Virus record (IMG/VR): IMGVR_UViG_3300013108_000188
Direction: 5' to 3' (one strand)
Length of the DNA stretch: 64,000 nucleotides
From: a virus
Part shown: positions 14,878-49,872 of the stretch, piece after piece
Layout: the number at the start of each line of letters is the position of its first letter
How positions within the stretch are numbered: the stretch's first letter is position 1
The notes under the pieces: generated by a model
Seen by the model: only the letters and a program-made list of their open reading frames with translations
Told to the model about the DNA's origin: nothing
The model's database searches: none
Translations under genes and position numbers: made by a program

Positions 14878-14904
14878 ATTACTCTTTCCTTAATACTTAA
14901 TTAA

Positions 14905-15294
14905 TTAAAATCCTAAATTTGATAAAAAGTTAGCTTTAGCAGTTTTGTGGTCAGCGATAGCAGTTTTAGTTGCAGAAGTGTCATCTGCCACATCTGATAA
15001 TAAGTCTATCATTTTTTTGCCTTCCATAAAACTTTTGTCTAAATCGTCTAAACCTTGTTCAACATAAGAGCTAGAATTTTTTAGTTTTGTTTTCTCATCA
15101 GCGTCTGATACTACTGATACTCCATATACAGAATCATTTGCACCACTAGTTGAAATGGTAGTATTACCATCGTCTATAGAAAAGTATGTTTTACCATCCA
15201 TTTCTCCTAAACTAATAGGCGTATCTCCTGTAGGAGCAGTATAATCATCACCTTGACCAATTCCAGCAGTCATTGAATATATTACTTTTGCCAT
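14905..15294 (-). CDS. Hypothetical protein (129 aa), possibly fibre-associated
   Basis: Clean ORF with GGAG RBS between propeller genes; no recognised motif. Confidence 0.6.
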   Translation of the reverse strand: MAKVIYSMTAGIGQGDDYTAPTGDTPISLGEMDGKTYFSIDDGNTTISTSGANDSVYGVSVVSDADEKTKLKNSSSYVEQGLDDLDKSFMEGKKMIDLLSDVADDTSATKTAIADHKTAKANFLSNLGF

Positions 15295-15328
15295 TGTTAT
15301 TTCTCCGTTTTCTTTTTTGTTATACTTC

Positions 15329-15336
15329 TATTTATA
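15329..15336 (-). promoter_or_regulatory. T4-type late promoter TATAAATA
   Basis: TATTTATA on the + strand in the intergenic gap upstream of the 129-aa ORF. Confidence 0.65.
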
Positions 15337-15337
15337 A

Positions 15338-19426: not shown

Positions 19427-19458
19427 TTTAGTTTCCTATTTCCCTCTTATTATATTTA

Positions 19459-22400: not shown

Positions 22401-22677
22401 CACCAATTTTATATTGTACTTCTGATTGAGGCCAAGCAGCTTCACCATCCCATTTATATGCGTTAGAACCTGTACTAGCTGAAACAGCTTTAGTAATTCT
22501 GACATATCTTCTTTGATTGTCTACTGGAGCAGTTCCCGTTGTAGCAGAATTCTTTGTACAAATCCAATCTGTGTTGTTGTACATAACAACATCGTCTTTA
22601 TAATATGTTTTTGTACTTGAATATTCTCCTTGATAATTGAAGAACAGATTTCCAATTCTAGTTTTTGTTGTTGCCAT
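19459..22677 (-). CDS. Large virion protein with RCC1-like propeller
   Basis: Repeats LWAWGYNGYGQLG, LYSWGYNGYGVLA, IYWSGRNEYG; N-terminal YQGEY...DDVV module. Confidence 0.75.
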   Translation of the reverse strand: MATTKTRIGNLFFNYQGEYSSTKTYYKDDVVMYNNTDWICTKNSATTGTAPVDNQRRYVRITKAVSASTGSNAYKWDGEAAWPQSEVQYKIGDTLVLHQDGNDFDDNKIAFSDSSTNKNTNLYHKDVTYFLNGKAVGAGTATNEYFNSSAFNNATKREIRIDFTSETPKEIYMFNYDNPSANWGPKIVVADHSIWKPIRQSFKWRGEHDNTNDSGSYQTYYTNDIVRIVVPLDNDFSETVMDQEHIQSARATYICIRQHTCDGTSKFLPWDQEVDTDDNKYWERISEEMQFDDEIVEDSGAVATITNISAASPSRKQGFYWSVNSKNITAAAENSNAGRTGGYNPPMFDVEVEGYQSAKTWTIETSAHYKRKKGKYNNVTHTSSSGGGSNSYWDFEVDMEGKVTKAVLTKKNLGGDMGGLGYAVNEELTFADSSFGGGGAPDVVLKITAIGTWGALNINLAKDDRQGRQYAQWYNDNEAPVFGGENNATNDQLGFDGQIFYSSSNVTFDVASTSKKARGYATRFTGNRLECMSLCNTNGPIGDDNKYYRLPGQFQQANCVNWPCFINGRGGITSWGSNSNGQNGINQGSVLMGVGMTFPFTDWYRSTDNGGSGVHTTPDGEPPKALQLISGYESGMALFNNGEIYHWGYGGHGQSGDAATSNRSYPVRCGGTYQEVYLAANTSTHTLKDTKIKRIWVTNWGGDNNTNTHSCYALDTDGELWAWGYNGYGQLGQNNTTNLNRPTKINKTSYFNGNKILAFWTAGAGYAFCFALDTAGKLYSWGYNGYGVLAQGNTTNLSVPTEITGVTFDNGSSNAGTIKKLLVDSQQSYQRVAVLTDKGKIYWSGRNEYGWAMMGNTTDVNTFTQMSGGPGSGTNSYCANMWFTGNGRYASFWTKDSTGAIKCCGYNGSYELGIGNNNNQSSAVDPKWQINGTTTADLENIKDIGCNSEYGNQWMCNVWVLTYDGFMFNTGRNNYGIGCQGWSSDYTNRQSTNNIEETDDYYFQMQRMPNYAHGRIEDVRGRGYYSTDGNRYHFREIRTFDNRYLMWGYGGDYMMGQNDSNYHSIAQPPVLG

Positions 22678-30065: not shown

Positions 30066-30407
30066 TTAGACGGTAACATTAGGACGAACGGTAATAATAC
30101 CTTCTATGACTCTGGTTACTACAGAATCACTAGTCCTAGTAACCTCTACATCATAAACATATCTGCTTGGTGCGTCCAAGGCAGCTGTTTGAGCAGAAGT
30201 TAGTGATAATGTGATAATTCCTGTAGTCGGATTCGCTACAGCAGTTGTCATTGTAGTCCGTGTCTTTGTACTTTCATACCCTTTAGCCATTTTGGCCTCT
30301 ACGGTATGACCTGTTAAATCCCAAGCTGCTCCATCACTTCCTGCCAATGTTATATTACTAGAAAATGTAGTGCCTTGGTCTATTCGTAGGTTAGCAATCG
30401 CCGCCAT
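30066..30407 (-). CDS. Ig-like virion adaptor protein (BppU N-terminal-like)
   Basis: NLRIDQGTTF, DLTGHT, GIITLSLTSAQT, RYVYDVE, RVIEGIITVRP. Confidence 0.6.
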   Translation of the reverse strand: MAAIANLRIDQGTTFSSNITLAGSDGAAWDLTGHTVEAKMAKGYESTKTRTTMTTAVANPTTGIITLSLTSAQTAALDAPSRYVYDVEVTRTSDSVVTRVIEGIITVRPNVTV

Positions 30408-30650: not shown

Positions 30651-31088
30651 TTATTTCTCCTTATATTTACTATTTATACTAATACCTGTATCGTACTTTA
30701 TTTCTTTTTCATACCAATCCCTAATATCAGGTATCATTCCTTGACTTTCATCTTCAGGAAAAGCTGATATAATAGGATTGTATATATGCTTCTTATCTTT
30801 ATATACTTCAAAGTAAGGGTCATTACTATACAATAAATTTGGGTCATTTAATAAGTCCCAAAAATTATCTCCATAATCTCTCTCAATCCACTTTGCATAA
30901 CAAACTGCTACGCAATAACTCTTTGCTGGATATATAAACTTATCTACCCTTTCGTGCCAATGTTTAATGGCAAATCGTACCGTCTCTTGTTCATCCCATA
31001 TTAAGGATATTTCTTTATCCATTAACATATCCGAGTGAGTAGGATTTAATCTATGGTAGACTTCTTGTTTGATTTTCCATTCTTTCAT
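30651..31088 (-). CDS. Hypothetical protein, last gene of the radical SAM cluster
   Basis: Overlaps the upstream gene; YPAKSYCVAVCYAKW, DPNLLYSNDPYF; no family recognised. Confidence 0.65.
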   Translation of the reverse strand: MKEWKIKQEVYHRLNPTHSDMLMDKEISLIWDEQETVRFAIKHWHERVDKFIYPAKSYCVAVCYAKWIERDYGDNFWDLLNDPNLLYSNDPYFEVYKDKKHIYNPIISAFPEDESQGMIPDIRDWYEKEIKYDTGISINSKYKEK

Positions 31089-31845
31089 AGCTTATATACT
31101 CCAAATTTCTACAATCTTCCCATTCAGGAATTTTGATATTTAAATAACTTTTTCTATTTACTTTATAAAACTTAATATGATGATACCATCTAAACAATTT
31201 TTTCCATTGCAATATCCAATTCTGTATATAGTAATTACTAGGGTGTGTATCTGATTTATAGAAAGGTTGTCCTTTATATACATTATTAAATCCTGTACCC
31301 ATACTATAGAAGTCGTGTCCAATTAAATATACTTCTTTCATATTATTAATCGTCTTACAAGCAACATAACCACTTGCAGGACCAGTTGCCCAACCAGTTT
31401 GTTCTGGATCCTTTATTATGTCTGTCAAATTATAGACATAATCTTTTGTACACCAACTTACACATACCATATTCTTTCCAGTTTCTTTATCATTATATCC
31501 GTGTAATACAAATTCATTTGAACCTGCTCTACTATTTTCTATTAGATGACCAGACTTTCTTATTGCTCTTAAATGTCTATAGTCAGGAAAGAAACCTGTT
31601 ATCATATTCTCAAAATTTTCTTGTGGTATTTTCATCCAATCTCTAAAATAACATTTAGCAGTATAAGAATAACCAGAGTTATAAATGTGGTGCATAACTG
31701 GATGGTCAGTTGCAACTAATATATCTGGTGCAAAATCTTTATAAAGAAAATTACAACCTACTATTACTCCACGAGATTTTAAATTTTTTAAATTAAAACC
31801 TTTTCTACTTTGACCGTTGCCAATACAAAATGCTCTATTTCCCAT
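31051..31845 (-). CDS. Glycosyltransferase-like Rossmann protein (DUF115/MAF/sialyltransferase-like)
   Basis: AFCIGNGQSR, IVGCNFLY..F.PDILVATD, WATGPA, EVYLIGHDF. Start reassigned to MGNRAF (31845). Confidence 0.6.
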   Translation of the reverse strand: MGNRAFCIGNGQSRKGFNLKNLKSRGVIVGCNFLYKDFAPDILVATDHPVMHHIYNSGYSYTAKCYFRDWMKIPQENFENMITGFFPDYRHLRAIRKSGHLIENSRAGSNEFVLHGYNDKETGKNMVCVSWCTKDYVYNLTDIIKDPEQTGWATGPASGYVACKTINNMKEVYLIGHDFYSMGTGFNNVYKGQPFYKSDTHPSNYYIQNWILQWKKLFRWYHHIKFYKVNRKSYLNIKIPEWEDCRNLEYISYERMENQTRSLP

Positions 31846-32809
31846 ATTTAAATTCATAAGTATCCAATAGATACCTATATCCATTACAACCATTATCTAA
31901 ATCTTTTACATATTGATAATGTTCTGTTAAACAATGTCCTAGATATTCACATTTTTTACATATAGGAGATATTGTTTTTTCTTTTTCTTTTATACACCAA
32001 TCTTCGTATTCTTTAAAACTATCTAATTCTAAAAAGTATTCTCTATCATCTTTATCAAATTCTAATACAGCAAACTTACCGTTTGGTGTAATATATAAAT
32101 GGTCATCGCTAAATGCGTTGTATTCTTTATTTAAAGAAGCAATTACTTTCTTTTTATTTACAAATTCATATTCACCTTTCTTACTACTAGGTTCCTGTAC
32201 TAATAATTCTAAAACATAATCTTCAAATTGTGCGTGGGTTACTCCTTGGTCATTTGCTTGATTAGCACTATAAGGTTTTAATTCTACACTTTTAAAATGA
32301 GATTTGCCATTATTTGCTTTTGCAGATTCAAAGTCAATTCTATTAAACATAGTCCACCAATGTTCTTTAGAGTGAGACATTACTTCTTTTGTTCCTAAAC
32401 ATAATACAGAAAAGTCAACTGGCAGTTTTGCCATATTTTCTCTAACTTTATGATAGTCTTGTCTAGTTTCTATATCCCAACTAACACTTAAATAATAATC
32501 AGGATAAAAAAATTCTTCTCTTAATACAGAAAGGTTTGTGTTGATATTGATTTTATCTTTATAATATAATCTAATAACTTCTGTTATATTCTTTAATTGT
32601 TCTTTCTTTAATATACCAATCTCACCACCATATAAATCAATATGATTAATTTCTCTATGAGCAGAAACTTCTGCTAGTAATTCATTTAATCTTTCATCAC
32701 TTATAGTTTTAGTATCACCTAATTGCTCAGGTGTAAGATAACACCAAGAACATCTAAAATTACAATGATAAGATGGATTAATTGATAAATTAATTTTCTG
32801 CTTCGTCAT
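31835..32809 (-). CDS. Radical SAM enzyme with C-terminal Cys cluster (SPASM/twitch-like)
   Basis: CNFRCSWC (CxxxCxxC), YGGE, NTNL, C-terminal CKKCEYLGHC...GC. Confidence 0.9.
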   Translation of the reverse strand: MTKQKINLSINPSYHCNFRCSWCYLTPEQLGDTKTISDERLNELLAEVSAHREINHIDLYGGEIGILKKEQLKNITEVIRLYYKDKININTNLSVLREEFFYPDYYLSVSWDIETRQDYHKVRENMAKLPVDFSVLCLGTKEVMSHSKEHWWTMFNRIDFESAKANNGKSHFKSVELKPYSANQANDQGVTHAQFEDYVLELLVQEPSSKKGEYEFVNKKKVIASLNKEYNAFSDDHLYITPNGKFAVLEFDKDDREYFLELDSFKEYEDWCIKEKEKTISPICKKCEYLGHCLTEHYQYVKDLDNGCNGYRYLLDTYEFKYGK

Positions 32810-32894
32810 AATCTAAATCCTCAAATAATGGAGTAATACCGTATACTTCTTTTTCCATCTGTTGTATAAATTTAAAAAAATCTAATTCACTCAT
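32790..32894 (-). CDS. Small acidic peptide (34 aa)
   Basis: Manual translation MSELDFFKFIQQMEKEVYGITPLFEDLDYDEAEN; ATGA overlap with the upstream stop; fills the only gap in the cluster. Confidence 0.55.
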   Translation of the reverse strand: MSELDFFKFIQQMEKEVYGITPLFEDLDYDEAEN

Positions 32895-33412
32895 ATGTTA
32901 TAATCAAAATATCCTGTTATTCGTTCAACACCTATTGGTCTAAAAGCACCAACTTTGTGTTCCCATTGTTTTTTGTGGTTCAATATTATAATATCTGTCT
33001 TGCCTGGGTACAAGTATGCAGATAAACTTTTTGTAATAGCACTTCTTACTTCTAATTGTCCTCCTGTATCAGGATTACTTGCAGAAGTAAAATAGATAAG
33101 AGCAGCTATATTAGCTCCTTCTTTATTATCATTATGCCATTTCAAAGAACCTTTGTCTACTCCATTAATAATTTCTGGTTGTCCCCATAAAGTATAATTG
33201 TTAGACAATTGTTTAATATATTTATCACCCAAATAAGTATGGCACATTTTGAGAGCATTCTCAACTTCTGGAGTATGTATTGCTACTTTGTAACCTTCTA
33301 TTTCTTTAAATGGTATTTCAACACCTTCAAAAAATCTAAATGGCATTGGATCCGCTGTAGGCCAAACTCCATTAATTAAAACATTTTCTATATTGGAACC
33401 ACTTCTCATCAT
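32891..33412 (-). CDS. 2OG-Fe(II) oxygenase
   Basis: WHND, ALIYF, GGQLE, WEHKV, RITGYF. Confidence 0.8.
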   Translation of the reverse strand: MMRSGSNIENVLINGVWPTADPMPFRFFEGVEIPFKEIEGYKVAIHTPEVENALKMCHTYLGDKYIKQLSNNYTLWGQPEIINGVDKGSLKWHNDNKEGANIAALIYFTSASNPDTGGQLEVRSAITKSLSAYLYPGKTDIIILNHKKQWEHKVGAFRPIGVERITGYFDYNI

Positions 33413-34497
33413 CGTGCCTCGCTTATGTACGGTGTCATTTGTAAAGTACTTCCATTTGCTTTTAGTATATCAGGTCCTATTCGTTTCATCTTCTCACAAT
33501 GTTTCTCTATTGTTCCAGCGTGTTGATAATCTTTTATTGTCTTTCTACAACCATTACATATATTAAACATTGGACAAGTAAAACATCCTTGTTTCATACT
33601 ATTTAATGAAAGGTCATCTTGTAATGGTGTAAAAAATTCACCTTTCATTTCTCTTTTAAAATCTATTTCTTTATCTCTATCATCACCAAAAGCACCACAA
33701 CTATAATAGTCTCCATCGGGTTGCAAACATCTTATACCTTCATCACACTTTCTACTTAAAGGACAAGTCGTACTACAATCACTAATAGTCAACATCATTT
33801 GTTTCGTATTAAATTCCCAAGGTGCTAAACCTAGATTATATATTTTAGTATATATCTCATATATATCTGATAATAAAAATGGTTCTTTTTGCTCACCACT
33901 CATCATTGCATAGTTTAATTTACATTCAACACCTGTCTTTTCTTCTCTATATAAATTATGTAAAGTACCTTTTGGCTCGTTATCTTCTGACATAAACTTT
34001 GCTAACTCAACATTTTTAATTGCGTTGTGTTCGTTCTCTCTTGTTATAACAGAAATAAAGTCTGGTCTATAATCACAATACTTTAACATTGCGTCTGAAC
34101 ATTGCCAAAAGTCGTCTTCTGTAAATTCTGAATAGTCTCCTTTTAATCTTCCACCACCATATTGAAAAGAAGTGGTTACTCCTATTCTTTTATCATTAAA
34201 CAAGTCTACCCACAAACTAGGTTTCTTTAAGAACGGCCATAAGTTTGTTGTTAAAGAAATTGATGTTGCATAGTCTCTTTCATCTAACCATCTAATAATC
34301 TTCCAATAGTATTCAGGTTCCATCATTAAAGGATCCCCACCATTTACTATAATAGTTTTAGTATGAGGAAATCTTGTTAAGAACTCAAATATTTGTTCGT
34401 GTTTTAACCAATTCTTTTTCTCTTTTGTTAATTGAGTACTTGAACAAAATGAACATTTGAAATTACATAATTCAGTAGGTTTAATTATTAAATCCAT
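33409..34497 (-). CDS. Radical SAM/SPASM enzyme
   Basis: IKPTELCNFKCSFC, NGGDPL, TTNL; CPLSRKC...YSCG and CFTCPMFNICNGC...HC. Start taken at MDLIIK (34497). Confidence 0.92.
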   Translation of the reverse strand: MDLIIKPTELCNFKCSFCSSTQLTKEKKNWLKHEQIFEFLTRFPHTKTIIVNGGDPLMMEPEYYWKIIRWLDERDYATSISLTTNLWPFLKKPSLWVDLFNDKRIGVTTSFQYGGGRLKGDYSEFTEDDFWQCSDAMLKYCDYRPDFISVITRENEHNAIKNVELAKFMSEDNEPKGTLHNLYREEKTGVECKLNYAMMSGEQKEPFLLSDIYEIYTKIYNLGLAPWEFNTKQMMLTISDCSTTCPLSRKCDEGIRCLQPDGDYYSCGAFGDDRDKEIDFKREMKGEFFTPLQDDLSLNSMKQGCFTCPMFNICNGCRKTIKDYQHAGTIEKHCEKMKRIGPDILKANGSTLQMTPYISEAR

Positions 34498-35066
34498 ATT
34501 GGTTCTGTCTTTGGTTGGTCTTTTACTTGCCATCCTAATACTAAAGATGTTCTAGGATTTTCTCCGAAGTATGGTTTAACTCTATGTACTAAAAACCCAG
34601 GAAACATTATAAATCTATTAGGCACAGGATTAATGTTTATTGTATTATAAGGATATTCAGCAAAAGTTAGATTTTTATATATACTTAATTCACCACCTAC
34701 CCATTTTTCAGGTGTATAATCACTTTCTATATAATAGATTGCAGAAATAAAAGCACCTTCAACTTGGTCGTGGTGTGGTTCATATAAATGATTGGTCACA
34801 CTAGACTTATCATACTTCTTTAATCTACCTTTTTGAAAATTAGATAACTCTAAATTATTATAGTCTATATTATTTGAGGCACAATAATTTAATAGTGTTG
34901 CATTTGCAATCTTACCAAATTCATTTTGAGAATAAGTAAGATTAAATGTATCTTGTCCTTTAATTGTACTATCAATTTTACTTTCATCTTTTAACCAACC
35001 AATCAATTCTTTATCAGTTAAAAAATCATCAATTACATTTATTGTATCTGTAAATTTAATTTCCAT
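34488..35066 (-). CDS. 2OG-Fe(II) oxygenase (prolyl-hydroxylase-like)
   Basis: PHHD, SAIYY, GGEL, NRFIMFPGFLVHRV, RTSLV. Confidence 0.85.
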   Translation of the reverse strand: MEIKFTDTINVIDDFLTDKELIGWLKDESKIDSTIKGQDTFNLTYSQNEFGKIANATLLNYCASNNIDYNNLELSNFQKGRLKKYDKSSVTNHLYEPHHDQVEGAFISAIYYIESDYTPEKWVGGELSIYKNLTFAEYPYNTININPVPNRFIMFPGFLVHRVKPYFGENPRTSLVLGWQVKDQPKTEPIWI

Positions 35067-35652
35067 ATAATTTAATCCAATCTAAACCAGTTGTAGTATC
35101 TTTATCTCTAATCCAAAAGTGTTCATATATTACATCTTTATGAAAACCAAATTGTTGCATTATCTCTCTATGATATGGTTCCTTTTGTGCTTTCATTTGA
35201 TTCATAGATAAGTGTAAGTAATCAAAATAAGTACCAGAAGGACATAATATTCTTCTATCTTTAAATATATTAATTGTTTCACACCACATTGTTCTTATTA
35301 AGTGTCTTCTTTCTACTGGACTTTTACTTCTCATATAACCAGGATACTTTAAAGACCCTACTATAACATAATCATCATAGATATGAAACATACCTACACC
35401 TTTTATAAAAGTATTAGGTGTTTTATTATGTACCCACATCTTTTCACCTATATTCTTTTCTGCTAGATTATAAGTTTCAATATCTTCTTCTTTCTTACCT
35501 AACCATAAAAATAAATGTGCTTGTCTGCCATCTATTCTAGGTATAAATGGTCTTTGAATTGGAAACTCATCTAATTGTATTTCAATGTCTGTATTATTAA
35601 TTTTAAGTTTTGAAATATCAGGTTGCGACAAAGTTTCTTTGTATTCGTACAT
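35056..35652 (-). CDS. Hypothetical protein in the radical SAM cluster
   Basis: ORF overlapping both neighbours; no family recognised; start MYEYK assumed. Confidence 0.6.
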   Translation of the reverse strand: MYEYKETLSQPDISKLKINNTDIEIQLDEFPIQRPFIPRIDGRQAHLFLWLGKKEEDIETYNLAEKNIGEKMWVHNKTPNTFIKGVGMFHIYDDYVIVGSLKYPGYMRSKSPVERRHLIRTMWCETINIFKDRRILCPSGTYFDYLHLSMNQMKAQKEPYHREIMQQFGFHKDVIYEHFWIRDKDTTTGLDWIKLYGN

Positions 35653-36670
35653 CTTCAATATATCTGTGCGTAAGTTTGTAAACACATTCATCCAATTCTT
35701 CCCTCCATTTATAATCGTGGTTCATAAAGCATCCTAAAGTACATCTATCTAAAAATTCACAACTAGCACAATTATATTTTTCTAAAAATTTATTTTCAAT
35801 AATTGAATTGTCCTTTTTCTTTATAGGTGAGCTATACATTACTAAATCTTTTGGGTCCTGTACAAGATTACCACATTGACATAATGTATTATCTTGTAAT
35901 ATTAATTTACTTGTTCTACAACTAGCATAATTTCTTTTGTTAAATATCCATTCTCTTACAGGAGAACATTGTGGATAGTTATCTATTATATACTTAAAAA
36001 ACTTAAATAATTCTGTATCACTTGGCATAAAATATTTTGCGTGTTGGTCTGGTGTATAATAATCAAAGTAAATCTCATAACCTTCATTATATAAATGTTT
36101 GAAGTATGGGTCGCCTTCTTCTAAATGATATTTTATCATTGGTTTAGTTATTAACATTGAAAAAGATTTTATTTCTTTTCCCCAATAGATTACTTGTTGT
36201 TTAAATCGTTCTAAATCTTTTTTATTAAATCTGCCTCTCGGGTCATAACTTGTAGTAATTGTTGCTTCAATACCTTCGTGTTCGGACCAACTTAATAAAT
36301 CTCTTAATAAGTCATTACCTTCATCACTCATAATCAAATTAGTAACCCAATTAATTCTAACTTTCTTCTCATAGTGTTCGCATATCTTTTGTATGCCTTT
36401 TGATAAAGTTTTATATGCTTGATTTAATTCTTTGTTATAGATTGCAGGTGCAAAGACTTCACCACCCATAATATTAAATACAACCTTCATCATCATTTCG
36501 GATTTGATAAATTTTTCTACAGGAACTATTTTATTGATTACGGTATCTATTCCAACCGTGTCATCGTGGTTTTGCCAACAGAAAGCACATCTTAAATTAC
36601 AAAATTCAAATAAATGAATTGTGTACTCTTGTTCTGGATCTCTTTTGGGGTCTATTAAAAACTCTCGCAT
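35618..36670 (-). CDS. Radical SAM/SPASM-like enzyme
   Basis: HLFEFCNLRCAFC, MGGE, VTNL, TSYDP.GRF; C-terminal SC...CQCG and CASCEFLDRCTLGC...EC. Confidence 0.9.
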   Translation of the reverse strand: MREFLIDPKRDPEQEYTIHLFEFCNLRCAFCWQNHDDTVGIDTVINKIVPVEKFIKSEMMMKVVFNIMGGEVFAPAIYNKELNQAYKTLSKGIQKICEHYEKKVRINWVTNLIMSDEGNDLLRDLLSWSEHEGIEATITTSYDPRGRFNKKDLERFKQQVIYWGKEIKSFSMLITKPMIKYHLEEGDPYFKHLYNEGYEIYFDYYTPDQHAKYFMPSDTELFKFFKYIIDNYPQCSPVREWIFNKRNYASCRTSKLILQDNTLCQCGNLVQDPKDLVMYSSPIKKKDNSIIENKFLEKYNCASCEFLDRCTLGCFMNHDYKWREELDECVYKLTHRYIEDVRIQRNFVAT

Positions 36671-36678
36671 TTAAACTC

Positions 36679-37794
36679 CTATGAGTTTGCGAATAGTCTG
36701 TATTTTCCTAGTGTATCTGAATCATTATCTTTCTTTAAAGAAAGAAGATATTGAATAAATGAGTAATTAACATTACCAACATCAAATCTTGGAATATACG
36801 CCAAAGATGGACTATTCGTCACCGCTTCATTAATTATTGTATCAAAATCACTTTTAGACAAAGAAGTATTACACGCCTTGTCAAAGTGTGCCATTGAATA
36901 ATCTGGATTTGGGATATTTTGTAAAGTTTGTATTGTAGTAATTAAATTTTTTAATGCAGTTTGTTTTTCACTTGACAAATTATCTATTGTTATTGTATTC
37001 ACATATCCAGCATTTGCAACAGGTCTAGCAGTAAAAACTTCTTCATCAGCAAAGGCAGACAATTCTGAAATTCCTTCAAAAGGATTATCAGCATTTATTA
37101 CAACATCACTTTCAGAATAACCTACAGCAGTTTGTTGCGACCTATTTAAAAGATTTAATAAAGTATCTTCTCTAACATCTGTTAGTATTTCTTTATAAAA
37201 TCTTTGTAAGAACATATGATAAGAAGAAAGTAAATTATCTTCGTGTGTATCAGCACCAGCAAAATACTCTCCAAGCAATAATTCAATTGAGAAATTTAAA
37301 TTAAGCGCTTTGATTCTATCTAATTCTAAAGTAGGTAAAACATCAGCATATCCTTTAACATTTCCTAAACCTGCATTTAGTTTAGTTAAGTCTAAAATAT
37401 GTGTTGGTTGGCATTGTGTATTTGCAATAATTCTTTCGTTGTGTAAATGTATGTCTAGGTATTTAACAATACTATCACTATCGCCAAAAGGTAAAATAGT
37501 TTTTAACCATATAACAGATAATTCTAAAAATGCTTGTGTATCACAATATATAACAACTTTACTATTCAATGATTTTTGTTTCTGACATACATCTTCAAAG
37601 AAACCAGTTAAGTCATCAAACTTACCTGTCATTTCATTTCTATTTTTAGCATAGTTAATTAGTGTGCCTCTATAAGCATTACCTAATTCTGATAACATTG
37701 GATTTCCTTTTTCTTCGGAAATAACATATCTATGTGTATGACAATCTATTGAATCGTCAAATTGTAAATAAACTTTATTAAACAGGTGTAGCAT
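36679..37794 (-). CDS. Hypothetical protein (371 aa) in the radical SAM cluster
   Basis: Long ORF coupled to its neighbours; no family recognised. Confidence 0.7.
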   Translation of the reverse strand: MLHLFNKVYLQFDDSIDCHTHRYVISEEKGNPMLSELGNAYRGTLINYAKNRNEMTGKFDDLTGFFEDVCQKQKSLNSKVVIYCDTQAFLELSVIWLKTILPFGDSDSIVKYLDIHLHNERIIANTQCQPTHILDLTKLNAGLGNVKGYADVLPTLELDRIKALNLNFSIELLLGEYFAGADTHEDNLLSSYHMFLQRFYKEILTDVREDTLLNLLNRSQQTAVGYSESDVVINADNPFEGISELSAFADEEVFTARPVANAGYVNTITIDNLSSEKQTALKNLITTIQTLQNIPNPDYSMAHFDKACNTSLSKSDFDTIINEAVTNSPSLAYIPRFDVGNVNYSFIQYLLSLKKDNDSDTLGKYRLFANS

Positions 37795-38470
37795 TTAAGT
37801 TTCCTATATCTTCTTTTTTAGCTTGGTTATATTTTTTAATATCAAATTTACCTTCGGCAACTGCCCAAGTCATCAAAAACATAGGGTTTTCTTTTACACC
37901 CCAATAATCAAATAGACTTTTGCCTTTAAACATATATTCTGTAAAGTATTTAGTATAGTATCTAACATTCTTTTCGTTAGATTTATTATAATAAAAATAA
38001 AAATCTTTATGTTTCAATAGACTAACAAAGTTAATACCTTTTACATCATTACTATCGTCTTTAGGATAACTATCAACAAAGTCTTTAAAAGCACCTTCTC
38101 CTATGATAGACATATTATATAAAGGTAGACTTTCTAATTTGTTTGCCCATTGTTCTATTATTTCTAAATTTTGAGAAATAAAAGCACCGTGAACTACATT
38201 TTTTATTAAACCTTTATGTTCAAAAAGAACTTGCATAGCAACTCTTTCTAACATCGGTATATTTACTAACATTTGTGTTTCAAAATATGCTAATAGTAAT
38301 TCATCATCATAGTTTGATATATCGCAAGGTATATCTAAATTGCTTATATAAGTTAAGAACTGAGCACCTTTTAATTTACTCTTTTCATAATCTATATTAT
38401 AAGTTTCAGTTTTATCTTCAAAATATTTTTTTAAATTTTTCAATTCAATTGGTACTATAGTTTCAATCAT
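37778..38470 (-). CDS. Hypothetical protein in the radical SAM cluster
   Basis: TAATG coupling to the stop of the CHSS-repeat gene gives start MIETIV (38470). Confidence 0.7.
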   Translation of the reverse strand: MIETIVPIELKNLKKYFEDKTETYNIDYEKSKLKGAQFLTYISNLDIPCDISNYDDELLLAYFETQMLVNIPMLERVAMQVLFEHKGLIKNVVHGAFISQNLEIIEQWANKLESLPLYNMSIIGEGAFKDFVDSYPKDDSNDVKGINFVSLLKHKDFYFYYNKSNEKNVRYYTKYFTEYMFKGKSLFDYWGVKENPMFLMTWAVAEGKFDIKKYNQAKKEDIGNLNATPV

Positions 38471-39252
38471 TATCTTCTGCTCCTGCTTCCGTGGCAACTA
38501 GAGTGGCAACTTGAATGGCAAATAGTTTTTGTCAATGTATAAGTTGTTCCTCTTTCAGTATTATATGTGTTTGCAAGTGTGGACATATAGCTCTCTAAAC
38601 TATTTGAACTAGCAACCGCTCCTGTTGTTAATGACGCAGGTTGCGAAATAGTTGGACTTGTTCTTTGTGCTGTTGGTAAGTGTGCAATTTGTGTATCTGA
38701 ATATTGTTGACCAGCGCCTGTCATATTTACAACAGCATTACAATTTTTAATATTAGTGTAAAGCAACATTTCTTGTTTTAATGTATTGTAGATATTGAAA
38801 GCGTGAATATTGGTTCCTGTTGAACCTATAGTAGTACCTACGATACCAATACTAACTGCTGATATTTCTGTCATTGTTGAAATTGTTCCTGTTGCACCAG
38901 AATTAGTTCCTGATAAAATATCATTTTGTAAAAAATTCGTTTGTCCAGAACCTGGAGTTATTTGTTTTGCTTTTAATGTACCTGTAGATGAATCCCAAGA
39001 TACAACCGTTCCTACCGTATTTGAAATAGAACCTGTAACCGTTTCGCCAACGGAATAATTAGTAGCACTTACATTAGTTAATACTAAAGACATACCATCT
39101 ACCACTCCACCAAAATCTGAAGTAGTAAATGCTGAGTGTCCTGGTAAAGAATCTGTTCCCCATACTATATTAGTATCAGCAACATCTGTTACCAATTCTT
39201 CAAATCTATCTACAATGTTTTGTGCCGTTATCGGACTTGTTAATGTTACCAT
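38470..39252 (-). CDS. Virion-like protein with C-terminal CHSS repeat; candidate radical SAM substrate
   Basis: T/S/G-rich; internal YSVGETVTGSISNTVGTVVSWDS module resembling gp7/gp8; ends TICHSSCHSSCHGSRSRR. Confidence 0.75.
   Translation of the reverse strand: MVTLTSPITAQNIVDRFEELVTDVADTNIVWGTDSLPGHSAFTTSDFGGVVDGMSLVLTNVSATNYSVGETVTGSISNTVGTVVSWDSSTGTLKAKQITPGSGQTNFLQNDILSGTNSGATGTISTMTEISAVSIGIVGTTIGSTGTNIHAFNIYNTLKQEMLLYTNIKNCNAVVNMTGAGQQYSDTQIAHLPTAQRTSPTISQPASLTTGAVASSNSLESYMSTLANTYNTERGTTYTLTKTICHSSCHSSCHGSRSRR
38491..38520 (-). repeat. 12-nt-period coding repeat encoding CHSSCHSSCH
   Basis: The + strand reads gtggcaactaga gtggcaacttga atggca. Confidence 0.85.
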
Positions 39253-40280
39253 ATTGCCTCACTTTTATTTTGCGCCAAATGTTTCATAAGTGATTTCGGA
39301 GCACCACATATATCACCTTGCCATCCTAATTGGTGACAATCTCCACCACAATACTTGAAAACTGGACACTCCCAACACAATGGGTTTCTTGCCACTTCAC
39401 ACGCTATATTGTGTAATCGCTTAGGACTATTTATAAGACCATCCAAAGGGTCATCTAAAGTGCCAAAAGTGAATTCAGGAGCAGCATTAGGGCAACCACC
39501 TATCGTTCCAGTTGCGTTGAGTGTAAATAGTTTTTGTTCACAATCTCTACAGAAGGTTCCTTGCGTATTATCTCCAGCAGTAAACTTTGAGTAAATAGTT
39601 TCAAAAAATTCATTTTCAAACCACTTTCTAGCTTTGTATTGTTTCATCTGCTCGTGCATTTTCAAAAACCACTTATCTTGTTCAATATTTGTTGGGAAAA
39701 TTTCAGGATGTAAGTTTGCATTACCATTACCTGTCAATCTTTCAAGTGCCATTTCTTGTACGCCTAAATCTTTTACCCATTTCAATAATTCAATAGGTTC
39801 AATTCTAACCGTATCTTTGGTTACTGATATAAAAAGTTTAACGGTTACTCCTTCATCAATTAAAGTAGCAACATTTCTTTTCCATAAATTAAATTGTTTT
39901 TCATTTGCAAAACGAATATTAGGATCCCAACTAGTACCACATCTATTTCCTAGTGGACCTTTCATAAAGTCTATATGTTCATCTTTTAGTTTAAAAACTA
40001 AATTAGTGGTTACACCATAAGATTGGTTGTTCCACAATCCTTTAGTTGCGTCATAGACATATTGCATTTCAGATACAGGAACCAAAAATGGTTCACCACC
40101 GTGAAATTCTAAATGTGCTGTGTCGTTTTTGTGATAGTTAAATTTGCGAAAAGAATTGAACCACTTGATAATCTTATCTGTATTCCAATATACTTTAGGT
40201 CCAGATGTTCCAGAAGTGAAACAATGTTTGCAATTTAAATTACAGGTTTCGGTTGTTTTAACATAAAACATCCAATTCAT
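39246..40280 (-). CDS. Radical SAM/SPASM enzyme
   Basis: VKTTETCNLNCKHC, FHGGEPFL, TTNL, TSWDP.IRF; SPASM-like CRDC...GGCPN and CWECPVFKYCGGDC...C. Start MNWMFY (40280). Confidence 0.93.
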   Translation of the reverse strand: MNWMFYVKTTETCNLNCKHCFTSGTSGPKVYWNTDKIIKWFNSFRKFNYHKNDTAHLEFHGGEPFLVPVSEMQYVYDATKGLWNNQSYGVTTNLVFKLKDEHIDFMKGPLGNRCGTSWDPNIRFANEKQFNLWKRNVATLIDEGVTVKLFISVTKDTVRIEPIELLKWVKDLGVQEMALERLTGNGNANLHPEIFPTNIEQDKWFLKMHEQMKQYKARKWFENEFFETIYSKFTAGDNTQGTFCRDCEQKLFTLNATGTIGGCPNAAPEFTFGTLDDPLDGLINSPKRLHNIACEVARNPLCWECPVFKYCGGDCHQLGWQGDICGAPKSLMKHLAQNKSEAIW

Positions 40281-40282
40281 TA

Positions 40283-40762
40283 TTATATAACTCCAATACT
40301 TAACCCCCAAGTATCAGCTTCACTTTCAACAAAATGTTGAACACCTTTCTCTATGATAATTCCTTCATCATCATATATAGGTTTAACCTCGTTATTCATA
40401 TTTACTTTCTTTTTGCCTTTTACAACATATAGGTAAACATCTTTGTCATCACAATGAGGTTTGAAACTTACACCTGGTTTTTGATTCACAAATAAATGAA
40501 TATCTTGTCTCTCTTTTCCTGTGATATTCTTTACTACTTCATCTAAAACTTCTCTTAACCAAGCAACATCTTCTAAACCTTCCACCTTAATAACTTTAAA
40601 TCTATTAAATTCTCTTAACCATTCTCCATAAGTCATATGTTCTTTGACTTCTCGGTCTCTACCTTCTTCGTCAATATAGAATAATTGTCTTGCTTCGTAT
40701 CTGTTATGATTTTGGATTTCGTCTTTTAATCGTTTAATCCATAATTGAGTTTGTTCGTCCAT
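40283..40762 (-). CDS. Cupin/JmjC-like protein
   Basis: SFKPHCDDKDVYLYVVKGKK and IEKGVQHFV (HxD...H double-stranded beta-helix). Confidence 0.75.
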   Translation of the reverse strand: MDEQTQLWIKRLKDEIQNHNRYEARQLFYIDEEGRDREVKEHMTYGEWLREFNRFKVIKVEGLEDVAWLREVLDEVVKNITGKERQDIHLFVNQKPGVSFKPHCDDKDVYLYVVKGKKKVNMNNEVKPIYDDEGIIIEKGVQHFVESEADTWGLSIGVI

Positions 40763-40771
40763 TATATACTC

Positions 40772-42073
40772 CTATTTACCAACAACTATTTCAACTAATC
40801 TCTCTCCTGTTGAGTCGTCATTGACTAAAGATTTTCCAATTAATGCACCTTGTCTTGGTTCTGCTTCTGCTCTTCCACAACCTTCTTGTTCACAACTAAC
40901 AATCATATCGCCTTTTTTTACAGGTCCACATACTCTACAAGGAACTCTTCCTGTTAATGCAACAGCGACAGACATTCCTTCTAAACTTCCGTTCATTATG
41001 AAAGCAGGTTTTTCTGATACAACACCTACAACTTTTGTACAATGATTTATTTTACAAGAAGTTACCTCAGCAGGTCCACCTATACATAATACCGTTCCTG
41101 TAGGATATTCTTTATCAGTTAAATATTTTTCTGCCAAGTCAGCATAGTTTGCTTTTGTAGCAGTTGTTGTTAATGTATTTGTTGATGGATTGTAATATAA
41201 ATCTGTATCTGTATTTAATCCTTGATTACCAGTTGCGTTAGCAGAAAAAGTAATATATCTTGTTGCGTTTGTTGAGTTGTCAGCAGTAATATTAACAGCG
41301 TTTGCTTGTGAAGCAGTACCAGTTATAGTAGTTGCAACTAAAGTATCTACCGTCAATGTTGAAGTTGCCATATCTTTTAATTTAGCAACCGATACCGAAG
41401 CGTCAGCAATTTGGTCTGTACTAATAGCGTCATTGGCTATCATTGTTTGAGTAACCGTATTTGTATCGCCTGTTGTGATTACGGTTCCACTTCTATCTGG
41501 TAAAGTAATTGTATTATCTTGTCCTGGGTCATCAACTCTTAATGTAGTTTCATTAGCGTTAGAAGTTGCACCTTCAAATTTCATTGAAGCACCATTGATG
41601 GTAACACCAGCACCTACTACCGTTCCACCAGCAGTTATTCCACCAGTTGTATTTAATTGTTCGTTTCCAAAATCTATTGTACCACTTGAAGATACAATTG
41701 AACCATTTGAAATAGTTATATCTCCAATATCAGCAGAAGTATTAACATCTATAGTTGTTAAACTTGATAGATTAGCATCCATATTAATTGTTAATGTATC
41801 TGGTGATGATACGATAGCTTCTAAATTTGTACCAGTACTTACGGTCAATGTGTTACCAGAAGCAACCGCCTGATTGTTTGTACCATCTGTTAATGTGAAA
41901 CCAGCAGCGGCAATAGCGATTGCGTTAATTTCATTTACAGCACCTATAACCGTAGTTGCTGACAATGAACTATCTAGTGTTGCAATGTCTCCGAAGTCGT
42001 TTAAAGCAAGAGCGTTAAATTCCGTTCTTAACTTATCTAAACTATCTGTTGTTGAAACTTGTCTAACTGCCAT
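40772..42073 (-). CDS. Tail fibre protein with C-terminal chaperone/peptidase-G2-like domain
   Basis: TDSLDKLRTEFN start, T/S-rich shaft, YADLAEKY...VVGVVSEKPAFIMN...VALTGRVPC..GPVKKGD. Confidence 0.7.
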   Translation of the reverse strand: MAVRQVSTTDSLDKLRTEFNALALNDFGDIATLDSSLSATTVIGAVNEINAIAIAAAGFTLTDGTNNQAVASGNTLTVSTGTNLEAIVSSPDTLTINMDANLSSLTTIDVNTSADIGDITISNGSIVSSSGTIDFGNEQLNTTGGITAGGTVVGAGVTINGASMKFEGATSNANETTLRVDDPGQDNTITLPDRSGTVITTGDTNTVTQTMIANDAISTDQIADASVSVAKLKDMATSTLTVDTLVATTITGTASQANAVNITADNSTNATRYITFSANATGNQGLNTDTDLYYNPSTNTLTTTATKANYADLAEKYLTDKEYPTGTVLCIGGPAEVTSCKINHCTKVVGVVSEKPAFIMNGSLEGMSVAVALTGRVPCRVCGPVKKGDMIVSCEQEGCGRAEAEPRQGALIGKSLVNDDSTGERLVEIVVGK

Positions 42074-48408: not shown

Positions 48409-49872
48409 TTAAAATTCTATGATTAACTTAACATTCTCCGTTTGGTCAGCACTTCTGGTTACTGGTGCTCTATTTTCAATGTACATTACATCGCCAGAGT
48501 CAGCGTCTATTTCAGAAGCAGAATAACCTGAAACTAAAGAAACATTGTTAACCGTTTCAGTATTGCCTGTTGGAGTTCCTGTAGGTGTACTTGCACTATC
48601 TCCAGTAACCACATTGGTTCCTGAAAACGCAGTCATATTACCGTTTGCATCCACACCTTCGTTATCATATCTTGTTTGTGTATAAAACAAAATTAAATTA
48701 GCAGCATCCCATTGAACAACTTTACCAACAGCACCTGTATTTGTTTGAGTAATTTTTTCATCAGCAGTAAAAGTTCCTGCACCTGAATTAAATCTAATAG
48801 CTTTAGTTCCTCTTAAAGTTGTTGTACTAGCAGCTGAACCACCTGATTTAGGATCCCTAATTAAACATACTCGTCTAAAATCGTTTTGAGTTGCAAAGTC
48901 TCCAGAGTTTGCAGTTTCAGCACCTTCAAAAGAAGTATTAAGTATTACAAAGTAAGCACCTAATTCTTCAAATGGATCTGAACCGTGTCCACCTTTTGGT
49001 TCTATGATTACATCTATTTCAGTACCAGATAAACTTCCACCACCAGCGGCATTTATATCTGCTACTCTAACATAACCGAAAGAATAACCAGTTGGAGTTC
49101 CAGTAACCACAGCACCTGTTACCGCACCTGAAGCAATTGTTATAGTACAAGTTCCACCAGAACCATCACCTCTAATTGCGATACCTGTATGTGTACCATC
49201 AGTACCACCTGTACCAGCAGCTTTAATTTTTAAGATTGAAACATCTCCATCAACAGCGGCACTTACTACAGAAGAGTTTGTTGAAACTCCCATAAAGTCT
49301 GTAGATAAAAAGTTTGCCTGAGCACTTGCAGATAAAGTGAACATATATTTCCACTTATAAGAATCTGCTGTTTCTAATATATTAACACTTTCTCCAGTTG
49401 GCTCAACCGTTGAAGCAGAATTGTTATTATTGTCTAAACATTTATAGACTTTGAAGTTTGAATTCATTACATAGAAATTTGCGTCATATAAATTCGTTGC
49501 ACCACTATTAGCAGTTTGAACATTAGTAGTTCCTGTTATTCTGTTTCCATAGTCGTGTCTGTAAATATCGTAAGTTGTTCCAGATGTCCAATTTATTCTT
49601 GGAGCAGCAAAAGCTACATCTGAAGCAGTAATTTTTTTAGCAGCCAGTAAATCGTCAAAAGAATCATATTCGTCTTGTACTGAATCGGCTGGTGTTATAG
49701 GAGCTGAATCAGTTCCTATGTTTTCTGTTCTTCCATCTGCTCTAGTTTTTGTTCCAAAAGCAGTTGGTTTTCCTATTCCTAGGTAATAGACATTTGGGGT
49801 TGCTTCACCAAAAGATTCCTCAAATTGTTGAGCATTGTTTCGTCTAAATTTACTTGTTATAATTGCTGGCAT
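48409..49872 (-). CDS. g8: Baseplate wedge subunit (gp8)
   Basis: RINWTSGTTYDIY, FYVMNSNFKVYKCLDNN, YKWKYMF, PKGGHGSDP..ELGA, YIENRAPVTRSADQTENVKLIIEF. Confidence 0.9.
   Translation of the reverse strand: MPAIITSKFRRNNAQQFEESFGEATPNVYYLGIGKPTAFGTKTRADGRTENIGTDSAPITPADSVQDEYDSFDDLLAAKKITASDVAFAAPRINWTSGTTYDIYRHDYGNRITGTTNVQTANSGATNLYDANFYVMNSNFKVYKCLDNNNNSASTVEPTGESVNILETADSYKWKYMFTLSASAQANFLSTDFMGVSTNSSVVSAAVDGDVSILKIKAAGTGGTDGTHTGIAIRGDGSGGTCTITIASGAVTGAVVTGTPTGYSFGYVRVADINAAGGGSLSGTEIDVIIEPKGGHGSDPFEELGAYFVILNTSFEGAETANSGDFATQNDFRRVCLIRDPKSGGSAASTTTLRGTKAIRFNSGAGTFTADEKITQTNTGAVGKVVQWDAANLILFYTQTRYDNEGVDANGNMTAFSGTNVVTGDSASTPTGTPTGNTETVNNVSLVSGYSASEIDADSGDVMYIENRAPVTRSADQTENVKLIIEF

Follow-up and report, generated by a model that had tools for sequence, protein, structure and literature searches.

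We analyzed a 64,000-nucleotide stretch of viral DNA (IMG/VR record IMGVR_UViG_3300013108_000188, here called the window) that comes from a T4-like, pelagiphage-type phage, whose gp8 protein shared 66% identity with its counterpart in Pelagibacter phage Mosig and 50% with the one in HTVC008M. The subject of this study is a block of 14 genes in this phage, all located on the minus strand and running from position 40762 to 30651. As described in the first-pass annotation of the window, the genes overlap or nearly abut (junctions of -74 to +9 nt) and are surrounded on either side by fiber-type genes. The block encodes 4 radical S-adenosylmethionine (SAM) proteins, which we refer to as rSAM_A to rSAM_D, a JmjC-like cupin, 2 oxygenases of the 2-oxoglutarate (2OG)-Fe(II) type, 5 proteins with no family assignment (orfX1 to orfX5), an open reading frame (ORF) of 34 amino acids and a protein of 260 amino acids, here called TAIL. 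In the order of transcription, the genes and features of the block are as follows.

40283..40762, minus strand: cupin, a JmjC-like Fe(II) oxygenase with a conserved H103-x-D105 ... H143 triad and K118
39246..40310, minus strand: rSAM_A, carrying a complete SPASM domain; lacks a peptide-recognition domain at the N-terminus
39428..39435, minus strand: sequence motif TATAAATA inside rSAM_A, 183 nt ahead of the TAIL start
38470..39252, minus strand: TAIL, 260 amino acids, predicted to be folded, with residues 53-130 forming an inserted beta-barrel; proposed to be the substrate and a component of the virion
38473..38520, minus strand: the 16 codons of the TAIL end, C-H-S-S-C-H-S-S-C-H-G-S-R-S-R-R
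37778..38497, minus strand: orfX1 (phrog_20767), a universal partner that does not look like an enzyme
36679..37794, minus strand: orfX2, 371 amino acids, no family; found in many cassettes and missing from others
35618..36670, minus strand: rSAM_B, with a SPASM-like Cys set
35056..35691, minus strand: orfX3, 211 amino acids, no family; restricted to certain lineages
34488..35066, minus strand: 2OG-Fe(II) oxygenase 1 (2OG_1), with conserved H98 ... H161 ... R172
33409..34533, minus strand: rSAM_C, with a SPASM-like Cys set; the best conserved of the 4 radical SAM proteins
32891..33412, minus strand: 2OG-Fe(II) oxygenase-like protein 2 (2OG_2), with conserved H93-x-D95; below the Pfam cut-off
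32790..32894, minus strand: acidic ORF of 34 amino acids without Cys; not part of the core
31835..32809, minus strand: rSAM_D, with a reduced C-terminal set of 5 Cys
31051..31893, minus strand: orfX4 (phrog_30607), with a GNGxS motif; in close relatives only
30651..31088, minus strand: orfX5 (phrog_20737), 145 amino acids, no family

The probable start codon of rSAM_A is the ATG at 40280, located 2 nt past the cupin stop codon, and that of orfX1 is the ATG at 38470, which overlaps the TAIL stop codon (a TAATG stop/start). A megablast search of the cassette region against phage records gave no match.

The TAIL protein terminates with CHSSCHSSCHGSRSRR. A protein of 260 amino acids with an end built of CHxx units had been pointed out in the first-pass annotation, which placed it in the middle of the block, whereas it is encoded by the third gene. 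The motif, (C-H-x-S)3-R-x-R-R, was found to terminate 148 distinct proteins of about 120 to 320 amino acids with very different bodies, which were collected with a degenerate DNA pattern (100 IMG/VR stretches and 16 prokaryote-genome stretches) and from loci identified via rSAM_A. The tailed proteins fell into size classes of about 127 (often as tandem pairs), 177 to 205, 257, and 296 to 319 amino acids. The mid-size and large classes were homologous from end to end, and the version in the source phage adds a beta-barrel insert of about 80 amino acids. In an alignment of 50 TAIL proteins with 20% to 81% sequence identity, C245, H246, C249, H250, C253, H254, R257, R259, and R260 were invariant, while S248, S252, and S256 were kept in at least 90% of the sequences; the invariant residues of the family were confined to the tail. 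Ser occupied the fourth place of each tail unit in at least 95% of cases, and the third position was variable (G/S/T/A/N). No Cys was present outside the tail in 105 of the 148 proteins. A profile search of 5.8 billion proteins retrieved at least 347 clusters, all of which were unnamed and had no Pfam domain. The exact motif was present in 120 of 122 sequences, comprising the best 120 listed profile matches and the tail proteins of Ralstonia phage RSL2 and Agrobacterium phage Atu_ph07, and the other 2 differed by one residue. It was also noted that some TAIL proteins contained additional CHxS units, with 5 in one locus (L092, 1675-2229) and 4 in 2 Bacteriovoracia loci (L191:864-1430 and L194:156-761). 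Thus, the number of repeats can vary while the R-x-R-R end stays.

In the predicted structure of TAIL (predicted local distance difference test, pLDDT, of 78), the tail continues from a beta strand at the end of the folded body. The insert (residues 53-130) matched common barrels with Z scores up to 6.9, and such barrels occur also in phage baseplate proteins. Fold searches with the model gave no match for the core scaffold, and a Pfam search identified no peptidoglycan-binding domain of the kind that characterizes HxsA. A complex prediction for rSAM_A and residues 200-260 of TAIL, which was run without controls, gave a score of 0.01 that speaks neither for nor against an interaction.

A search of phage genomes for co-occurrence of the radical SAM clades with a CHxx-tailed protein had been suggested as a test in the first-pass annotation, and comparisons of gene neighborhoods in both directions came out in favor. 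We identified 126 distinct TAIL loci, and all 51 loci that extended for at least 3 kb on both sides contained radical SAM genes, with 2 to 9 genes per locus. The orfX1 gene was present in all 32 TAIL loci with at least 6 kb downstream. In the inverse search from rSAM_A, the TAIL gene was located directly downstream in 59 of 72 loci, and the remaining 13 loci shared a single inverted layout in which the TAIL genes are found beyond extra radical SAM genes; for 2 of these 13 loci, TAIL genes were present at another place on the contig. The order cupin, rSAM_A, TAIL, orfX1, and rSAM_B/C/D was kept in phages RSL2 and Atu_ph07, the rSAM_A proteins of which were 45% to 51% identical to that of the source phage. 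In total, well over 100 phages, as well as predatory bacteria, were found to have the cassette, and its position next to fiber genes was kept in unrelated phage groups. Judged from these neighborhoods, the CHxS-tailed protein belongs together with the enzymes in a single conserved unit.

The core of the cassette was also identified in Bdellovibrio-type chromosomes, in Halobacteriovoraceae genomes of 3.4 to 3.7 Mb, and about 10 of the 16 prokaryote matches to the tail pattern were assemblies of Bdellovibrionota. In 2 Halobacteriovoraceae genomes, the cassette was present in a single copy on contigs of 382 kb and 1.29 Mb. One of these 2 genomes, here called G003, contained a gene for a 345-amino-acid protein with a C-terminus of the Peptidase_S74 type (an endosialidase chaperone, as in fiber-type proteins), which was transcribed divergently from rSAM_A, TAIL, and orfX1 (L202:14655-15692).

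Several variants of the locus deserve mention. Genes of the FHA, transglutaminase-elicitor, and clostripain families followed at the locus with the Peptidase_S74-type gene in G003, and the cassette of this genome (L203:6572-8311) contained an additional radical SAM protein of 579 amino acids with a B12-binding domain (class B, usually methyltransferases), which is absent from the window. In 4 IMG/VR loci with twin TAIL proteins of about 127 amino acids (L035, L097, L069, and L076), a giant fiber gene encoding up to 3682 amino acids was followed by 2 TAIL paralogs, 5 to 6 additional radical SAM genes and then an inverted arm with rSAM_B, orfX5, rSAM_D, rSAM_C, and rSAM_A, giving up to about 10 radical SAM genes per locus. 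A cassette with about 80% protein identity, along with fiber genes, was observed on a 32.5-kb contig of a metagenome-assembled genome named 'Rickettsiales bacterium MED606' (L184, NZIN01000021.1). This contig is probably a phage contig that was binned with a SAR11-type host genome, which fits a pelagiphage origin of the window.

All 4 radical SAM proteins contained the CX3CX2C motif at residues 16-31, which leaves no room for an N-terminal recognition domain. They matched phrog_1802 with E-values of 7.5e-33 to 2.5e-65 and the Pfam family PF04055 with E-values of 1e-4 to 6e-7, although the Pfam gathering threshold (29.5) was only reached by rSAM_C (30.2), with rSAM_D at 29.4 and both rSAM_A and rSAM_B below. 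The invariant SAM-binding motif was GGEP/GGE in families A, B, and D, and GGDP in family C. The SPASM domain (TIGR04085) is defined by 7 Cys in the arrangement CX9-15GX4C ... CX2CX5CX3C ... C, which bind 2 auxiliary 4Fe-4S clusters. While the first-pass annotation had assigned SPASM-like Cys sets to all 4 enzymes, we found a full SPASM domain in rSAM_A (28.1 bits versus a cut-off of 27), with C254, C257, C273, C312, C315, C321, C325, and C335 invariant among 36 homologs. The pattern CX2CX5CX2-3C...C was present in rSAM_B and rSAM_C, for which the TIGR04085 scores were below the threshold or absent, and rSAM_D contained only 5 C-terminal Cys and is better described as partial or twitch-like. 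The 4 proteins were 17% to 26% identical to each other, and each had its own orthologs (about 25% to 65% identical) in jumbo phages and Bdellovibrionota, with 47% to 58% identity for rSAM_C. They are old paralogs, presumably with 4 different functions.

The best family-model matches of the 4 enzymes were to the anaerobic sulfatase-maturating enzyme (anSME), DynA, HxsB, and PapB, and the best matches among solved structures were to anSME, which gave the sole full-length alignment, CteB and ChlB. None of the curated family cut-offs was reached by the cassette enzymes, and the scores for the PapB, CteB-type, DynA, and DarE models were all far below their cut-offs. The radical SAM core began 16 to 24 residues from the N-terminus, unlike in the maturases of peptides made on the ribosome and modified after translation (RiPPs) that carry a RiPP recognition element (RRE). 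In the family-model and PDB comparisons, the enzymes resembled SPASM enzymes that modify peptides and proteins and not enzymes of the queuosine or cofactor type, a grouping that the first-pass annotation had named as evidence against its proposal.

The presence of 2 putative 2OG-Fe(II) oxygenases and a cupin was as described in the first-pass annotation. The 2OG_1 protein exceeded the Pfam gathering threshold (PF13640, 33.1 versus 27), with H98, H161, and R172 conserved, while 2OG_2 (24.1 versus 27) and the cupin (Cupin_2, 24.3 versus 27.2) scored just below, with conserved iron ligands (H93 and D95 in 2OG_2, and H103, D105, and H143 in the cupin, where K118 was also kept in the family). On these scores, family membership is firm only for 2OG_1. 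The HxD...H triad and the lysine of the cupin resemble those of JmjC-type hydroxylases, and the cupin gene preceded rSAM_A in most of the phage loci.

The accessory proteins provided fewer leads. The structure of orfX1 was modeled with confidence (pLDDT 86.6) and matched no known fold (Foldseek E-values above 0.3, best VIA Z score of 4.6, and Atlas TM values of at most 0.40); a profile search against the PDB and a language-model search retrieved nothing, and no catalytic signature could be recognized. No match was obtained for orfX4 in Pfam, NCBIfam, or PDB sequence searches, nor for the profiles of orfX4 and orfX5 against the PDB and Pfam. The distribution of orfX5 ranged from pelagiphage-type phages to jumbo phages and Bdellovibrionota. 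The label "glycosyltransferase-like", previously given to orfX4, was weakened, in that it depends on the GNGxS motif and on a weak language-model lead to MptE-like/DUF115 proteins (a neighboring cluster in which 13% of the members contained PF01973), and the gene was found in close relatives only. Glycosylation, a proposal based on this single non-core gene without a family match, is not supported. The acidic 34-amino-acid ORF was considered as a precursor peptide and rejected; it contains no Cys and was conserved only in the nearest relatives, and its inclusion as a part of the system in the first-pass annotation was not upheld.

The nearest characterized analog of the cassette is the bacterial HXS antiphage system (TIGR03976-03979; Li et al., Nat Commun 2026, PMC13128918), in which HxsA, a protein with His-x-Ser repeats, is matured by the radical SAM enzymes HxsB and HxsC together with HxsD. 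A site-specific modification of +8 Da on the SHRSS sequence of HxsA is required for the function of that system (PMC13128918). Both systems contain several radical SAM enzymes beside a protein-sized substrate, or candidate substrate, with tandem His-x-Ser units, of which there are 3 in the phage tail. However, the phage proteins are not members of the HXS families: rSAM_A scored 35.9 bits against HxsB (TIGR03978, cut-off 370) and rSAM_C 32.1 bits against HxsC (TIGR03977, cut-off 267.9), and none of the non-enzyme cassette proteins had an NCBIfam match to HxsD or HxsA, or to any other model, at E <= 0.01. Furthermore, the His-x-Ser units of the phage protein are interleaved with invariant Cys and followed by R-x-R-R at the extreme C-terminus, the phage cassette encodes 4 to 9 enzymes as well as oxygenases, and HxsA is a periplasmic defense effector whereas the product in phages and predators is a virion-module protein. 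The earlier statement that no characterized example is known has to be qualified in view of this characterized analog.

Other relatives resemble single features of the cassette. The enzyme anSME (TIGR03942; PDB 4K36-4K39) is a minimal radical SAM/SPASM protein of about 350 to 370 amino acids without a leader-binding domain, and the cassette enzymes are comparable in size and likewise have no such domain. anSME has 2 fully ligated auxiliary clusters, targets Cys or Ser within a whole protein, and is the only solved structure that aligned over the full length of rSAM_A (E 3.4e-7). The last tail unit, C-H-G-S-R, also resembles the sulfatase motif C/S-x-P/A-x-R. In contrast to the anSME system, the score was 39.7 bits versus a cut-off of 349.45, no sulfatase is encoded in the cassette, the third position of the tail units is variable, and there are 4 different enzymes instead of one. 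The thioether-forming CteB/SCIFF and PapB/ranthipeptide systems, which act on Cys-rich peptides, share with the cassette the presence of SPASM enzymes beside regularly spaced Cys, and CteB (5WGG) and PapB were among the best matches. These matches, however, mostly covered the N-terminal core and were far below the cut-offs, the phage enzymes have no N-terminal RRE domain, and their candidate substrate is a folded protein of 120 to 320 amino acids. The triceptide synthases HaaB and HtkB have been documented to form cross-links from His-C2 to the C-beta of the residue 2 positions further on (PMC11499958). The H-x-S units of the tail fit this 3-residue pattern, and ChlB (9GM3) matched the rSAM_A profile with an E-value of 1.2e-7, but this is a resemblance only. 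The cyclophane-synthase models YhhB, FxsB, AmcB, and GrrM gave 19 to 29 bits versus cut-offs of 310 to 445.

Evidence for a location in the virion was obtained from Atu_ph07, in which the tailed protein is gp170, with a computed mass of 31.89 kDa that equals the value in the published table. This protein was among those identified in purified virions, with 8 unique peptides and a coverage of 35%, while gp165, gp168, and gp171 (radical SAM), gp172 (cupin), and gp169 (orfX1) were absent from the virion list (Attai et al. 2018, PMC6102473 Table S5), in line with the original suggestion that the modified protein belongs to the virion. It was recovered from gel bands 1 to 9, with a peak in band 1 at the top of the gel (PMC6102473 Table S5), where proteins of 87 to 127 kDa peak, whereas for other proteins near 30 kDa the peak is in bands 7 and 8 (PMC6102473). 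The only cysteines of gp170 are located in the tail. Its position in the gel fits a trimer that is stable in sodium dodecyl sulfate (SDS), a disulfide-linked species, or covalent cross-links. Separately, a virion protein of 22.9 kDa in Ralstonia phage RP31, ORF78, adjoins the radical SAM genes ORF72-76 (PMC5468394 Table S3).

In the window, the cassette is part of a minus-strand run of structural genes. From gp6 downwards, the run contains gp6, a gp7-like gene, a gp9/10-like connector gene, gp8, a gene for a 2034-amino-acid protein, a gene for a 74-amino-acid virion protein, up433, the 14-gene block, 2 small genes of the fiber-assembly type, and more fiber genes. The positions of the flanking features are as follows.

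54151-56004, minus strand: gp6
49904-49897, minus strand: T4-type late-promoter motif TATAAATA, just upstream of gp8 and at the head of the gap-free structural run
48409-49872, minus strand: gp8 (Pfam Phage-Gp8, E 2.7e-17)
40772..42073, minus strand: up433, a fiber-module protein of 433 amino acids
30066..30648, minus strand: 2 small genes that accompany the cassette in relatives, the second of which (30066-30407) is of the LtfC-like, L-shaped tail-fiber assembly type

The up433 homologs gp176 in Atu_ph07 (PMC6102473) and gp359 in phage PA5oct were both found in virions by mass spectrometry. The C-terminal part of up433, of about 130 amino acids, is a domain that, in about 120 loci, ends fiber proteins of 126 to 3682 amino acids whose genes lie directly upstream of the cassette. 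A role for this domain as a cassette-specific docking site was rejected, as the domain was also present in PA5oct gp359 and in gp036 of Campylobacter phage CP220, with no cassette nearby. We also rejected PA5oct gp360 as a tail-less homolog of TAIL, as no similarity was detected. Further away, downstream of the fiber genes at positions 12682-22677, 3 large minus-strand genes encode proteins of 731, 1362, and 1072 amino acids that matched PHROGs annotated as 'regulator of chromosome condensation' (RCC1-like repeats); these are probably beta-propeller fiber or adhesin proteins.

The late-promoter motif before gp8, where the first-pass annotation had placed a late promoter, was confirmed, and the same motif points to late expression of the TAIL gene itself. 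Of 128 distinct TAIL genes, 55 (43%) had the motif TATAAATA in the 400 nt upstream, compared with 0% to 12% for the other cassette genes and a background of 2.8%. Its distance to the TAIL gene was fixed within each lineage, at -34, -74, -97, or -176 to -184. In the source phage (-183), L016, L024, L118-L136, and others, the motif at -176 to -184 was situated inside rSAM_A, and its position within the gene was kept in lineages in which rSAM_A was only about 65% identical. The conservation of its place despite this divergence suggests an internal promoter for TAIL, with the DNA motif itself under selection. The contrast to the other genes would fit with TAIL being made in larger amounts than its enzymes.

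Taken together, the block in the source phage is probably one copy of a widespread and so far unnamed protein-maturation cassette, with TAIL, a folded late protein of the baseplate or fiber module, as the product. We think it reasonably likely that the radical SAM enzymes and the oxygenases all act on the tail, and that TAIL, once finished, becomes part of the periphery of the fibers or baseplate. According to this proposal, the 16-residue tail, with 3 Cys-His-x-Ser units and Arg-x-Arg-Arg, would be modified inside the infected cell by rSAM_A to rSAM_D. As these enzymes are of the size of anSME and have no leader-binding domain, they would act on the end of a protein and not on a leader peptide. 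Up to 3 oxygenases of the Fe(II)/2OG type (the cupin and the other two) and orfX1 may take part, after which the finished TAIL protein would be incorporated into the particle and the enzymes left behind. As a guess, the most likely chemistry would be intramolecular cross-links via the invariant Cys, His, and Ser, such as thioethers of the sacti- or ranthipeptide type, bridges from His-C2 to Ser-C-beta of the triceptide type, or both, with added hydroxylation; formylglycine or an HXS-like change are other candidates. A fiber-associated protein would in this way acquire a rigid and basic end, possibly with the ability to bind metal.

Several observations weigh against modification of the tail by the cassette enzymes. 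The link between enzymes and substrate is purely genomic, and a pathway that combines oxygen-sensitive radical SAM enzymes with oxygen-requiring 2OG oxygenases would be unusual. The virion evidence comes from a distant homolog, since the body of gp170 is only 23% identical to that of TAIL in the source phage, with only the tail being the same. The migration of gp170 in band 1 may simply reflect an SDS-resistant trimer or disulfides, as no reducing agent is listed for the loading buffer, and the late-promoter counts are not phylogenetically independent. Moreover, a strictly conserved spacing with a period of 4 for Cys, His, and Ser, all of them classic ligands, is also what would be expected of a plain metal-binding site. 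Sites with His and Cys ligands are common in phage fibers and spikes, as in the T4 fiber tips, spikes, and PAAR proteins. The tail might thus be such a site, formed by residues from the 3 chains of a trimeric fiber-type protein, in which case the target of the enzymes would be something else, such as a sugar, a small molecule, or a different virion protein. The migration of gp170 at the size of a trimer or larger and the predicted continuation of the tail from the last beta strand of the body are both consistent with this explanation, which we nevertheless consider unlikely. It leaves unexplained why radical SAM genes are present at every adequately sampled TAIL locus, and why rSAM_A is so regularly placed directly upstream of TAIL, a pairing that is kept even in the chromosomes of predatory bacteria. 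The tail holds the only invariant residues of the family, with no other conserved target visible in TAIL, and a metal site would have no need of an invariant R-x-R-R end.

The remaining explanations account for the enzymes in other ways. The number of radical SAM genes per locus and the ligand-type character of the invariant residues could mean that the enzymes assemble a cofactor or a complex metal cluster for delivery to the tail, as in the assembly of the iron-molybdenum cofactor (FeMo-co) or the H-cluster, instead of introducing cross-links. In a marine T4-like genome that carries 12 radical SAM genes, to which no function was assigned, Fe-S assembly proteins are encoded as well (Nishimura et al. 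2017, PMC5332604), and this would be in keeping with cofactor delivery. Yet no match to NifB, HydE/G/F, or scaffold-like proteins was obtained, peptide and protein maturases matched best, and there is no known carrier or candidate for an insertase, so that we regard this explanation as very improbable. It is similarly improbable that TAIL is a precursor from which the modified 16-residue end is cleaved off as a free peptide, a RiPP proper that could serve as a chelator, signal, or anti-defense factor, with the body as a large leader. An invariant C-terminal core behind a variable N-terminal part is the usual layout of RiPPs, but the cassette has no conserved protease or exporter, the body is predicted to be folded and is itself conserved, the gene is located in the fiber module with late-promoter motifs, and the Atu_ph07 homolog was recovered from virions with more than a third of its sequence covered (PMC6102473). 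Finally, weak N-terminal matches to the MoaA, QueE, and viperin models could hint at a pathway for DNA or nucleotide modification, or at an auxiliary metabolic pathway, that is located among structural genes by chance. Any radical SAM core gives such matches, which here do not extend beyond the shared core and have lower scores than those to the peptide maturases; there are no partner genes from nucleotide or cofactor pathways in the cassette, and the fiber-adjacent position recurs across unrelated phage groups. A chance location of this kind seems hardly credible.

A bolder hypothesis can also be formulated, which we put forward as tentative and in some doubt. Phages and Bdellovibrio-type predators may share a dedicated set of at least 4 radical SAM enzymes and iron oxygenases that turns the Cys-His-x-Ser end of a fiber-associated surface protein into a covalently cross-linked structure, possibly holding a metal or cofactor, that is needed to attach to or breach the envelope of the prey. 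Such a process would amount to a new protein chemistry and to the first case of a virus particle being modified by radical SAM enzymes. In our literature search, we found no paper that describes the tail motif or the modification of a virion protein by radical SAM enzymes, and the papers on the phages that carry the cassette merely list the genes.

Enzymatic post-translational chemistry on the particles of bacterial viruses is almost unexplored, and radical SAM maturation has so far concerned small peptides, sulfatases and, since 2026, one bacterial defense effector. Here, 4 to 9 radical SAM enzymes are linked to a single invariant end of 16 residues on a particle-type protein, in marine T4-like phages, in jumbo phages of soil and plant-pathogenic bacteria, and in predatory bacteria. 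The cassette is present in the cultured phages Atu_ph07, RSL2, RSF1, FLC6, and S13, and the tail forms a single tryptic peptide, which makes the proposal directly testable. If true, several enzymes acting on a Cys/His/Ser repeat would represent a new protein chemistry and an added layer in the assembly of phage particles, perhaps also in host recognition, and the fibers of phages would be linked to the prey-attachment apparatus of predatory bacteria.

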